A DNA stretch of 64,000 nt from Bythopirellula sp. (GTDB taxonomy: Bacteria; Planctomycetota; Planctomycetia; Pirellulales; Lacipirellulaceae). The DNA lies in contig OZ244170.1 of assembly GCA_965216565.1 (NCBI GenBank), positions 896,001 to 960,000 on the forward strand, read 5' to 3'. The position numbers and the translations under genes are program-made. Shown one piece after another: positions 41,899 to 45,885 of this stretch (positions are counted from its first letter, which is position 1; each line of letters starts with the position of its first letter). The notes below the pieces were generated by a model that ran no database searches, was not told the origin of the DNA, and saw nothing but the letters and a program-made list of their open reading frames with translations.

Positions 41899-42543
41899 TC
41901 ACTTCACAATCGAAAACCCAAAGCTCGTCCGCGGGCGTCGACGGGCGTGGTGATAGTAACCGAAGTGCGGGCTGCAGTGCAGCGGACCACAAGGGGGCGG
42001 GCCGTAGTAGTGCTCTTCGACCACCACGGGCGGCGGAACCGAGGCGACGGCCGTGCGGGCCGGTGGGTTTTGCATGACGGTAATCACGTCGGTCGAGACG
42101 CCATTGTTATGCAGAAAGATTACGTCGTCGGCAGAGAGGGGCCGCTGGACGCCCGACGTGCGGACGTAATTCTTGATTAACTGCGGATCGACGCCCGTGC
42201 GCGTCATCGCTACCACTTCGTCCATGGTGGCTGCGCCCGACTGGACTTGTCGTCCGAGTTGGGCGGCAATCTCGGCCCGGTTACGCGCCTGCAATTCGTC
42301 CATCGACTCGCCAACAGCGGCGCCAGTTAGGGCACCGAGTCCGGCACCGATGAGCGCGCCTGTACCCGCACTGCCGCCGGTGGCGTCGCCAATAATTGCT
42401 CCCGCCCCGGCTCCCGCCAGGGCCCCTACTCCGGCACCGCGGTCGGCATAATAGGGCGAACGGCAACCAACACTCACAAGTGTCAAAGCAACAACCAGGT
42501 GCGCGAACGCATTGTTGCGACAGCGGGACTTGAGCCAAGACAT
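41899..42543 (-). CDS. glycine-zipper lipoprotein
   Basis: lipobox VSVGC; GAGVGALAGAGAGAIIG...GALIGAGLGALTGAAVG. Confidence 0.85.
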   Translation of the reverse strand: MSWLKSRCRNNAFAHLVVALTLVSVGCRSPYYADRGAGVGALAGAGAGAIIGDATGGSAGTGALIGAGLGALTGAAVGESMDELQARNRAEIAAQLGRQVQSGAATMDEVVAMTRTGVDPQLIKNYVRTSGVQRPLSADDVIFLHNNGVSTDVITVMQNPPARTAVASVPPPVVVEEHYYGPPPCGPLHCSPHFGYYHHARRRPRTSFGFSIVK

Positions 42544-42591
42544 AGCAATACCACAGCAGGAGTCGACGGGTGAAGAAATTACGGGGCGGGA

Positions 42592-42620
42592 ATGGTCCCA
42601 GTCCGCAGGGCAAGGGTCAA
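42592..42620 (-). promoter_or_regulatory. possible sigma70 promoter for glycine-zipper lipoprotein gene
   Basis: minus strand TTGACC-N17-GACCAT. Confidence 0.45.
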
Positions 42621-42646
42621 TAGCGACCTGGTGCATTCGCTGGTTT

Positions 42647-42963
42647 GCCACAGAGATCACAGAGGGCACAGAGTCGGGGGGGATGTTGTGCTAGCCTTGC
42701 TGGTAGAACGGGTTAGTAGGCAGTCTGCTACCAGAAGAATTGCCAATATCGGAGTCTGTTTAGGGATTTAAATCGCGACTCACAAACTCAAAGCGAATTG
42801 TCACGCCGAGGTCTGCCGAGGGGTCTAGCCAGATTCCTCGGCAGACCTCGGAATGACAGCAACTGTCGTTGCTGAGTCCCGATTTAAGTTCCTGGACACA
42901 CTCAAGAAACTAGCCAGAAAGCAGCCCCGTTTTAATCTCTTTCATCTCTGTGAACTCGGTGGC
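42647..42963. repeat. Three-layer nested palindromic element
   Basis: outer CACAGAG arms; middle 31-bp IR 42752-42782/42873-42903; inner 42799-42858. Confidence 0.8.
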
Positions 42964-43052
42964 TAATCTGCGAACTCGGTGGCGAATCGTTCATTCTATT
43001 CGTAAAGTGCAAGCCATTTGCCCAGAGTTTCGCAGCCATAGTCGGGTTGTGC

Positions 43053-43081
43053 TTGCATATCCAGCCGCCCCGGCGTACAAT
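43053..43081 (+). promoter_or_regulatory. sigma70-type promoter of met operon
   Basis: TTGCAT-N17-TACAAT; predicted start ~43088, immediately before the aptamer-like motif. Confidence 0.75.
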
Positions 43082-43090
43082 TTAGAGCAA

Positions 43091-43133
43091 CTCGGGATTT
43101 GTGGCCGCTTGCAGCCGACACTGCTAAAGAGCC
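43091..43133 (+). ncRNA. putative SAM-II-like riboswitch aptamer (compact)
   Basis: tcgg-GATTTG-tggcc-GCTTGCA-g-ccga-cact-GCTAAAGAgcc; SAM-II hallmark blocks in order, upstream of methionine genes. Confidence 0.7.
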
Positions 43134-43191
43134 AACGCCAAACACTGAAAAGTCAGTGCGAGGCAACAATTCAGCTAGCTGGTTTATCAAG

Positions 43192-43225
43192 AGCCGCATT
43201 TGCCGAGAGTGAATGCGGTTTTTTT
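43192..43225 (+). terminator. intrinsic terminator (riboswitch expression platform)
   Basis: agccgcattt-gccgagagt-gaatgcggtt then T run, 50 nt before the start codon. Confidence 0.8.
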
Positions 43226-43274
43226 ATTGCGCTATATTTCCGACCACTCCCCCCTGACCCCCTCGCCTCTCACT

Positions 43275-44525
43275 ATGAGCCAGCTCGAAATGAAAAACCC
43301 ACCCGGCGATACCCAACCCGATGGTGATTCTTCGACCAAGCTAGACCACGATAAATTCCCCGAGGATTTTTCGACGCTCTCGGTCCACGCCGGCGAAGCA
43401 CGGCAGAAGCCGGGCAACTCGATCACCGATCCGATTTTCTGCGCGTCGACCTATTCTTTCGAAAGCACGCAGGCGGTGATCGACTTCATCGAGCAAAAGC
43501 AAACCCGGGAGGAGTACGGTCGCTACGGCAATCCGGGGGAACGGATTGTCGAGCGCAAGCTGGCTGCACTCGAAGGTGGCGAAGATGCGGTGCTTTATTC
43601 CAGCGGCATGGCGGCGATCGTCGGGCTGCTGATGTCGAAGCTAAGCAGTTGCGACGAGGTGATATTCTTCGACGAATGTTATCACCGCAGCCGCGAGTTT
43701 TGCACCAAACACCTGTCACGCTTCGGCGTGGTCACTCGGCAGGTGCGTGCCTGCGACTACGAGGCGATGGAAGCGGCCATCACGCCGCACACCAAAATGC
43801 TCATCAGCGAGTCGCCCACCAATCCGCACCTTAGTTGCGTCGACCTCGGTCGCTTTGCCGACATCGGTAAGCGGCATGGCGTGGAAACGCTGATCGATGC
43901 CACGCTGGCGACGCCTTACAACCTGCGACCCATCGATGCGGGGATCGACTACGTTTTGCACTCGGCCACCAAGTATCTTGGCGGACACAACGATCTACTG
44001 GCCGGCGTGGTGGTCGGTACGACCGAGCAGCTCGAACCAGTTCGCAATCTGCGCGGCATCATGGGTGCGGTCAACGGGCCGCAGAATGTGTATCTGCTCG
44101 CTCGGGGGCTAAAGACATTCGAACTTCGCATGCAACGGCATAACGAAAACGGACAAAAGATAGCCGAGTTCCTGGAGAGTCATCCTCGCGTCGAGCGGGT
44201 TTATTACCCGGGGCTCGAGTCGCATCCGTATCACGAAGTGGCCAAGCAAACAATGCGTGGCTACGGCGGGCTAGTCACGTTTCTGGTGAAAGACGCCGAC
44301 TGGCGGCAAACAGCCAACATCGTCGACGCCGCGAAAATCCCCCGCATCGCCCCCAGCTTGGGCGGCGTGGAATCGCTGATCGAACAACCGCTCGTAATGA
44401 GCTATTACCAGTGCACACCCGAAGAACGCAAACAGTTCGGCATCCCAGACAACATGATCCGCTTGTCAGCTGGGGTGGAGAACTCAGCCGATCTAGTTGC
44501 GGATTTAGAACAAGCACTGAGTTAG
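43275..44525 (+). CDS. metB: cystathionine gamma-synthase-like PLP trans-sulfuration enzyme
   Basis: [40 protein letters not shown]; exact specificity inferred. Confidence 0.75.
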   Translation: MSQLEMKNPPGDTQPDGDSSTKLDHDKFPEDFSTLSVHAGEARQKPGNSITDPIFCASTYSFESTQAVIDFIEQKQTREEYGRYGNPGERIVERKLAALEGGEDAVLYSSGMAAIVGLLMSKLSSCDEVIFFDECYHRSREFCTKHLSRFGVVTRQVRACDYEAMEAAITPHTKMLISESPTNPHLSCVDLGRFADIGKRHGVETLIDATLATPYNLRPIDAGIDYVLHSATKYLGGHNDLLAGVVVGTTEQLEPVRNLRGIMGAVNGPQNVYLLARGLKTFELRMQRHNENGQKIAEFLESHPRVERVYYPGLESHPYHEVAKQTMRGYGGLVTFLVKDADWRQTANIVDAAKIPRIAPSLGGVESLIEQPLVMSYYQCTPEERKQFGIPDNMIRLSAGVENSADLVADLEQALS

Positions 44526-44531
44526 TTTCTA

Positions 44532-44708
44532 ACCACAGAGGACACAGAGGACACGGAGATTGTCTTAAACAGGTTGCGATAGCGACACACTAAGCTGAAG
44601 GACACCTGATCGATCTATTTCTCTACTTCTTGAATTCAATCCTGTCGATCGGTCGAATCCCGTAATCCTGTCTTAACTATTCTCCATGCCCTCCGTGTCC
44701 TCTGTGGT
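44532..44708. repeat. CACAGAG-family palindrome enclosing an AATCCTG-family arm
   Basis: accacagaggacacagaggacacggag ... ctccgtgtcctctgtggt. Confidence 0.75.
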
Positions 44709-44727
44709 AATTTGAACAAGAATAACC

Positions 44728-45885
44728 ATGAGCAATCAACGTTTCCGAACACGCGCTATCCACGTTGGCAACGAAAAGTGTGCTGAGACCGGCGCCGTTG
44801 TGCCGCCGTTGCATTTGGCGTCGACGTTCGTGCAACCGGGGGCCGGGGATTGGGGGGAATTCGATTACTCTCGCAGCGGCAACCCGACGCGGAAGAATTT
44901 GGAAACCACGCTCACTTCGCTCGAAAACGGGGTCGGCGCGCTCGCCTTTGCCAGCGGGATGGCGGCGACCCATTGCGTGGCAAGCATGCTTAGCGCCGGC
45001 GACCATATCGTTGCCGGCAGCGATATCTACGGCGGCACTTATCGTCTTCTGCACAAAGTTACCAACCGCGCGGGCATCGAAGTCTCGCTTGTCGACGCCA
45101 CCCAGCCCGAGCGATTAAGGGAAACGCTCACCCCGGCGACCAAACTAGTTTGGATCGAAAGCCCAGGAAATCCGTTGCTCTCCATCACCGATATCGCGAA
45201 ATGTGCAGAGATTGCGCATCAGCACGGGGCCTTGCTTGGCGTCGATAGCACCTTCGCTACGCCCGTTTTAACGCGTCCCCTGGAGTTGGGAGCCGATATC
45301 GTGATGCATTCGGCCACAAAATATCTGGGTGGCCATAGCGATTTGGTCGGCGGCGCGTTGGTGGTGAAAGATCAGCAGCTTTACGACGAATTATATTTCG
45401 TTCAAAACTCCACCGGCGCGATTATGGGTCCGCTGGAAGCATTTCTCTGTTCCCGCGGCATCAAAACTTTGGAACTGCGCGTCCGCGAACAATGCCGCAC
45501 CACTACCCAATTGGCTGAGTGGTTGAACCAGCACCCGCGAGTCGAACGTGTTCTTTATCCGGGCATCGCCACGCACCCAGGACACGAACTCGCCAGCCGA
45601 CAGATGGACGGGGCCTTTGGAGCGATGCTTGCCTTTGAAATCCAAGGCGACTATTCGGCAGCAAAGAGATTTGCGGAGTCGACCGAGTTATTCCAATTGG
45701 CAGTAAGTCTCGGGGCGGTAGAATCCCTCATCGAACAACCCGCCTCGATGTCGCACGCCAGCTACGACGCCGCGGACCGTGCGAAACATGGTATCTCCGA
45801 TGGACTCATTCGCTTGTCGGTTGGTTTGGAAGCGGTGGAAGACTTACGGGCCGACCTGGAATTGGCTTTTAGTAAAATGGATTAA
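44728..45885 (+). CDS. cystathionine beta/gamma-lyase-like trans-sulfuration enzyme
   Basis: [43 protein letters not shown]. Confidence 0.88.

Follow-up and report, generated by a model that had tools for sequence, protein, structure and literature searches.

We identified, upstream of two trans-sulfuration genes of Bythopirellula sp., a leader whose 43-nt element (43092-43134, forward strand) is likely a compact SAM-II-type aptamer that binds SAM and shuts these genes off by letting an intrinsic terminator form. Within the window, that is, the whole 64,000-nt stretch of DNA analyzed, Rfam returned no match at the gathering threshold. At the leader itself, the SAM-II model RF00521 (SAM_alpha) aligned over its full length at 43083-43147 with 13.3 bits, under the 36-bit cut-off and no better than noise (sixth of 12 matches in the genome at E<=10), and a strict consensus scan of 42500-43600 called neither promoter nor terminator; given these two results, the case rests on comparison. 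The SAM-V model (RF01826) had no match at the locus at E<=10 and SAM-I none in this genome, while weak miRNA and snoRNA matches in the window were dismissed as hairpin or chance matches. Neither RF00521 nor RF01726 exceeded its cut-off in any of the 61 genomes searched, bearing out the view of the first-pass annotation that standard models may miss the element.

A compact aptamer with the SAM-II pocket nucleotides

Read 5' to 3', the aptamer comprises the P1 5' strand UCGG (43092-43095, partner 43115-43118), the triple-helix strand GAUUU of L1 (43096-43100; G8, A9, U10, U11 and U12 in 2QWY numbering), which is invariant in our alignment A1, the P2a 5' strand UGGC (43102-43105), the nearly invariant P2b 5' strand CUUGCAG (43108-43114; C19, U20, U21, G22, C23, A24 and G25), the P1 3' strand CCGA with a 2-nt L3, CA (43115-43120), and the P2 3' strand (43121-43134) with G42, C43, U44, A45, A46, A47 and a terminal GCC. 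The UGGC segment is the predicted switching strand, with 43131-43134 as its partner in the bound state and 43193-43196 in the antiterminator, and the P1 5' strand together with 43091 would also form an outer antiterminator helix. Every coordinate given in the first-pass annotation was correct, from TTGCAT, the 17-nt spacer and TACAAT through the blocks at 43092-43133, the hairpin at 43143-43158 and the terminator to the ATG at 43275.

PMC3764141 gives U10-U12, U20, U21, G22, C23 and G42-A47 as the completely conserved SAM-II pocket, with the sulfonium recognized by U11 and U21, the adenine by U44 and the amino acid by A47. All 13 pocket nucleotides are present at 43098-43100, 43109-43112 and 43123-43128 and, together with G8, are invariant in 83/83 aligned homologues, with the proviso that the pattern-scan rows of A1 are invariant by construction and that invariance is unbiased only for the orthologue-anchored rows, which were taken with a loose pattern. 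The letters of the major-groove triples G8-C23-G42, U11-U21-A45 and U12-U20-A46 are likewise all present, as a matter of sequence compatibility only. Two Gemmatimonadota copies (L078 and L080, 692-754 on the minus strand of each) carry the same 18+6 core letters with a 5-bp P1 and an A-rich L3, and they score 43.5-43.7 bits against 44 for RF01726 and 31.8-33.1 against 36 for RF00521; the L078 copy precedes a homocysteine S-methyltransferase gene. Because these copies combine the same core with normal helices and score near the cut-off, they tie the compact element to the SAM-II family, and the SAM-II identity proposed earlier holds. We consider it very probable that the element is a SAM-binding aptamer. 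Since it departs from the canonical RF00521/RF01726 form (a 5-6 bp P1, an A-rich L3 of ~8-11 nt and A-minor contacts) and scores below the Rfam cut-offs, we file it as a variant; judged by its sequence, it is a SAM-II-class variant and not a member of either Rfam family.

The element had been described as unusually small, with a P1 of 4 bp and an L3 of about 4 nt; it is indeed compact, and more extreme than that, with P1 commonly shorter, L3 likely only 2 nt and P2 one pair longer. P1 has lost its usual closing base, so that G43095 pairs with C43115. Among 191 planctomycete copies, contiguous P1 spans 0-1 bp in 7, 2 bp in 52, 3 bp in 54, 4 bp in 65 and 5-6 bp in 13, placing 106/191 at 2-3 bp and 171/191 at 2-4 bp. 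The helix nevertheless covaries as a whole (0.218 versus 0.130 for shuffled alignments, 0/500 shuffles; slid registers reached at most 0.063), and registers -1/+1 and -1/+3 were rejected as fitting worse than -1/+2; the canonical register is kept in L055 and L059. The top pair has changed once, from G-C to A-U (L151), the third is mismatched in 28/83 rows, and a tree-based test had only 5-6 independent pairs, too few to reach significance.

UUGCA and GCUAAA lie 7-10 nt apart in 170/191 homologues, with a total range of 7 to 65 nt. Because A43113-U43122 (A24-U41) and G43114-C43121 (G25-C40) can pair, as their counterparts can in 82/83 and 80/83 rows, respectively, L3 is predicted to be 2 nt here; it is about 2-4 nt and not A-rich in homologues. 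A pair at about the A24-U41 position had been predicted in PMC2258182. In P2, 93% of cells are paired, with the outermost pair of P2a disrupted in 52/83 rows; because 7/11 pairs never vary, covariation lends the pseudoknot no support in its own right. Two copies have long inserts between the blocks, of 65 nt (L038:2932-3040, minus strand) and 39 nt (L063:1267-1349, plus strand), and the compact aptamer therefore appears to tolerate insertion in L3. When the aptamer was folded alone in ViennaRNA, which models no pseudoknots, triples or Mg2+, the P2 hairpin was preferred to P1 in 183/189 of these compact copies (mean P 0.80 versus 0.025); we therefore offer an inverted folding order only as a hypothesis.

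With RF00521 (the metA motif of PMC1273637; structure 2QWY, PMC3764141) the element shares, as far as the available texts go, the ordered blocks and pocket nucleotides, a promoter a few bases before P1, a terminator after the aptamer and methionine genes downstream (PMC1273637), and its L1 and P2a are nearly identical to the Rfam consensus. It differs in its P1 of 2-4 rather than 6 bp, the absence of an A-rich L3, the extra G25-C40 pair and a UUGCA-GCUAAA spacing that is 17 nt in the Rfam consensus. Counted by eye, 84 rows from part 137 of the SAM-II alignment of Barrick 2007 (PMC2258182) have at least 11 nt at this position; one of these rows, AAFZ01007814, has the same shifted P1 register. 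The SAM-II long loops family RF01726, reported from Bacteroidetes and marine sequences in the consulted part of PMC2864571, has the same core, a consensus that fits A24-U41 and long L3 inserts like those of the few Pirellulales copies L038 and L063, but differs in having a P1 of 5 bp and an L3 rich in A. A pseudoknot architecture and two-uracil sulfonium recognition are shared with SAM-V (accessible text of PMC7367207), in contrast to the missing RF01826 match at the locus.

Distribution and downstream genes

We searched 61 genomes with the first protein encoded downstream and read the DNA upstream of the best match in 59, the window's genome included; G002 had no orthologue-level match, and in G016 the gene is cut off by the start of a contig. 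In 55/59 the motif lies upstream of the orthologous gene, so that GAUUU, UUGC and GCUAAA are conserved in orthologous leaders, as the first-pass reading requires. Three of the four misses are contig ends (L015, L033 and L047) and one is a real absence (L067), and two loci of the same genus, Bythopirellula, carry the motif. Family f14, to which G049 and L067 belong, had the motif in 0/15 genomes searched, though G049 has the orthologous gene. An exact-pattern scan of a species-level genome collection returned at least 120 stretches; among the 80 pattern matches listed with titles, 78 are planctomycetes and 2 Gemmatimonadota.

A covariance model, R1, was built from the 83 chosen rows of A1, and the window locus, which scores 73.6 bits, is in its training set. 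R1 found the element at E<=0.01 in 121/150 other Pirellulales genomes (118 at E<1e-8), almost always as a single copy, and beyond the order gave one weak match in 114 genomes of the class, one weak match in 150 of the phylum and none that was strong. The match from beyond the class, L191, was discarded as chance: it is weak and falls on the antisense strand of a long coding sequence. R1 found no second copy in the window's genome. A metY-like/metA-like cluster elsewhere in that genome was also rejected as a target: it lacks the motif, and a coding sequence ends ~50 nt upstream of it. A homologue of the first enzyme (P0001) lies downstream in 172/193 distinct loci; of the other 21, 18 have at most 300 nt of sequence and 3 (L077, L078 and L080) have no match. 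The L077 copy (L077:691-747) is from Pirellulaceae, with no metB-like match within 700 nt downstream. Separately, L038 carries, immediately 3' of its metB-like gene, a c-di-GMP-I-GGC riboswitch match over its cut-off (61.4 bits; L038:1255-1334, minus strand).

The first gene of the operon (43275-44525, forward strand) encodes a Cys/Met PLP enzyme (PF01053, E 1e-125), likely a MetB-like cystathionine gamma-synthase (CGS). It falls below every NCBIfam cut-off shown, and its top PDB match is the cystathionine gamma-synthase 1i41, at 347.7 bits against 290.5 for the next. Given this match, the protein is likely closest to plant-type cystathionine gamma-synthase, 1i41 being the plant enzyme that uses O-phosphohomoserine; a riboswitch may here control a CGS of the plant type, an arrangement for which our literature search found no report. 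A MetA-family protein is encoded elsewhere in the same genome. The second gene (44728-45885, forward strand), by protein family match another Cys/Met PLP enzyme of the cystathionine beta/gamma-lyase or synthase family, is likely co-transcribed with the first, and many relatives have a paralogue after the orthologue of the first enzyme. On the other side of the leader lies a divergent lipoprotein-like ORF (41899-42669, minus strand).

Promoter, terminator and the predicted switch

Upstream of the aptamer is a predicted sigma70-type promoter, supported by sequence and by the pattern in homologues, whose -35 hexamer TTGCAT (43053-43058, forward strand) and -10 hexamer TACAAT (43076-43081) are separated by a 17-nt spacer; transcription would start at about 43087-43089. 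The pattern TTG-N3-N16-18-TANNNT occurs within 55 nt upstream of the aptamer in 180/191 homologues, compared to 0/191 control windows and 191/20000 random windows, and in 130 of the 180 the -10 ends 12-14 nt before GAUUU. Downstream of the aptamer, a spacer hairpin (43137-43164), variable in sequence and length among homologues, leads to a predicted intrinsic terminator (43189-43225) made of a hairpin and a 7-U run (43219-43225); the hairpin folds at -18 kcal/mol with a z of -3.6. In the linker at 43165-43190 and in its homologues, a CAACUUGA-like tract recurs with loose conservation ~10-25 nt upstream of the arm of the terminator; a loose pattern picks it up in 35/63 homologues. A heuristic finder detected a terminator in 123/160 copies with enough DNA.

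The 5' arm and loop of the terminator (43193-43207) double as the 3' strand of a predicted antiterminator. In 105 of the 123 homologues (47/51 of the orthologue-anchored ones) the arm reads GCCGC, GCCAC or GUCGC, the complement of L1's GYGGC, compared to 29/771 terminator-like hairpins of the genome, and the GCCAC arm appears only with the U form of L1 (2/2). The element's own promoter and a terminator coupled to the aptamer, both proposed from the first reading, are supported by these comparisons. The proposed pairing of L1 with the terminator arm is supported as well, in a form longer than was noted: 43100-43105 with 43193-43198 is extended by 43091-43095 with 43203-43207. The duplex of 43090-43105 with 43193-43207 has a predicted energy of -20.7 kcal/mol against a background mean of -7.9, and only 1/771 background sites, possibly the same site, is as low. 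Permuting the partners never equalled the cognate duplexes, whether across the full 105 or within the 31 family members (0/5000 each), with the caveat that kin are not independent, and among 16 one-per-family genomes the outer helix has no cognate advantage (1808/5000); for this last reason we regard the outer helix as a family trait. Within it, CUCGG/CCGAG has become CUUGG/CCAAG in L018, L032 and L070, which fall in separate clades of a 146-row tree, and L026 has a mismatch.

The two states are closely balanced in energy. At equilibrium the full leader folds at -42.5 kcal/mol when terminated and -41.7 otherwise, and even without ligand the terminator prevails (P 0.90 versus 0.04); adding 10 bases gives an antiterminated minimum-energy fold and a terminated centroid. 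When this transcript was cut before the U run, P(terminator) was 0.26 with the aptamer free and 0.99 with it blocked; for 113 homologues cut in the same way the means were 0.70 and 0.92, with only 27 free values below 0.5, and 10 nt earlier the GGC of L1 pairs downstream (P>0.5) in 103/113. These folding numbers fit a kinetically decided switch whose antiterminator is first to form, and are no proof of it. A full mirror-image anti-aptamer in the linker is not supported: the 3' half of the aptamer pairs downstream with a mean P of only 0.17-0.24.

In the mechanism that we favor, transcription would start near 43088 and the aptamer would be made first. With SAM present, the GAUUU strand would dock on P2, the pseudoknot would close and the P1 5' strand and UGGC would be held, leaving the hairpin at 43193-43219 to form and the polymerase to stop at the U run. 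Without SAM, 43100-43105 would pair with 43193-43198 and 43091-43095 with 43203-43207 before the 3' arm of the terminator emerges, and the genes would be read. The decision to terminate or read through is likely kinetic.

If the terminator were largely constitutive, SAM would still bind the aptamer but would exert its effect chiefly via the stability of the RNA or the release of a small RNA, the behavior reported for the metA leader of Sinorhizobium. Such an arrangement has a counterpart in PMC9373788, where the terminator of a SAM-II leader has no predicted riboswitch-driven antiterminator, and it would suit both the equilibrium preference for the terminator without ligand and the 41/172 homologous loci that lack a detectable terminator. 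We nonetheless consider it improbable, because a constitutive terminator would need neither the complementarity of its arm to L1, so rare among background hairpins, nor the compensatory changes in the terminator loop. The shortened P1 and L3 raise the further thought that ligand recognition has changed or relaxed (e.g. to SAM and SAH alike), or that a protein partner is needed for folding, with the terminator still switched. The predominance of 2-3 bp P1 helices, the predicted preference of the isolated aptamer for P2 over P1 and the lack of the A-rich L3 that anchors P1 in 2QWY (available part of PMC3764141) all point in this direction, but U11 and U21, U44, A47 and G22, which include the contacts to sulfonium, adenine and amino acid, are all kept and the gene context is methionine synthesis, and we hold this reading, too, to be unlikely.

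It is very improbable, in our estimate, that the conserved sequence serves some methionine or sulfur regulator as its DNA operator, or that a Cys-containing leader peptide attenuates the terminator. A near-invariant sequence right after a promoter would suit an operator or such a peptide, and a small ORF with two Cys codons does run from a GTG at 43101 to a TAA at 43125-43127; its GTG and frame are both kept in only 46/191 homologues, however, on which ground the leader-peptide attenuator was rejected. Neither an operator nor a peptide sits well with block spacing that varies from 7 to 65 nt, with the covariation of P1 or with a core whose Gemmatimonadota copies score as SAM-II.

In the window, the ATG at 43275 lies 140 nt from the aptamer and is preceded by no SD-like purine run, making translational control unlikely for this SAM-II-type switch. 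Among the 41 loci without a detectable terminator, 7 have an in-frame ATG within 30 nt, and in L136 (Novipirellula sp. SH528), L137, L150, L167 and L189 an ATG follows GCUAAA by 5-15 nt, which suggests translational control where the aptamer abuts the start codon. A broader reading, which we advance tentatively and with some doubt, is that the Pirellulales have a distinct, minimal SAM-II type of ~40 nt whose folding order is inverted: P2, longer by A24-U41 and G25-C40, would be the pre-formed hairpin, and SAM would draw the 5' GG-GAUUU strand into a triple helix that only 2-3 P1 pairs keep in place. This 5'-end strand-capture switch would be one invariant aptamer coupled to a terminator across most of the Pirellulales and directly to a start codon in a few Pirellulaceae.

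Precedents, significance and surroundings

The first-pass annotation noted that SAM-II aptamers often act on translation; transcriptional control is not unusual for them, as PMC1273637 and PMC2258182 describe the class as often or most often followed by a terminator, with a promoter just before P1. By these sources and PMC9373788, the terminator-linked arrangement is already the known and described norm, with the qualification in PMC2258182 that as of 2007 the SAM-II terminator mechanism was not yet established experimentally. The Sinorhizobium meliloti metZ riboswitch (same portion of PMC9373788) resembles our leader in its predicted SAM-dependent intrinsic termination and short leader RNA, and differs in that its aptamer is alphaproteobacterial. 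In a search of article listings with few subscription papers among them, and of text from PMC2864571 and PMC5473149, we found no paper describing SAM-II in planctomycetes; in the Barrick 2007 Stockholm archive (PMC2258182), Rhodopirellula appears in the AdoCbl file only.

If our reading is correct, the element would fill a gap by supplying SAM feedback on methionine synthesis in a planctomycete order where the current Rfam models detect no SAM-II (0/61 genomes) and in a genome with no SAM-I match, would show the extent to which the SAM-II fold can shrink and would give the class an explicit, covarying antiterminator. At ~40 nt it would also be inexpensive to make for studies by NMR, crystallography and single-molecule methods. 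It reveals no new ligand and no new kind of regulation.

The DNA around the leader holds repeats of its own. Upstream of the promoter, a palindromic REP/MITE-like hairpin occupies 42752-42903 (core 42799-42858), and a blastn search with 42601-43010 gave 55 matches in the genome, mostly to this core. Inverted repeats with CACAGAG-type ends (42644-42673 with 42937-42966) bound an intergenic element 5' of the operon. Between the two enzyme genes, a second inverted-repeat-bounded element with CACAGAG-type ends (44526-44727) forms, on folding, a long hairpin (-68 kcal/mol), with a few partial matches to it elsewhere.
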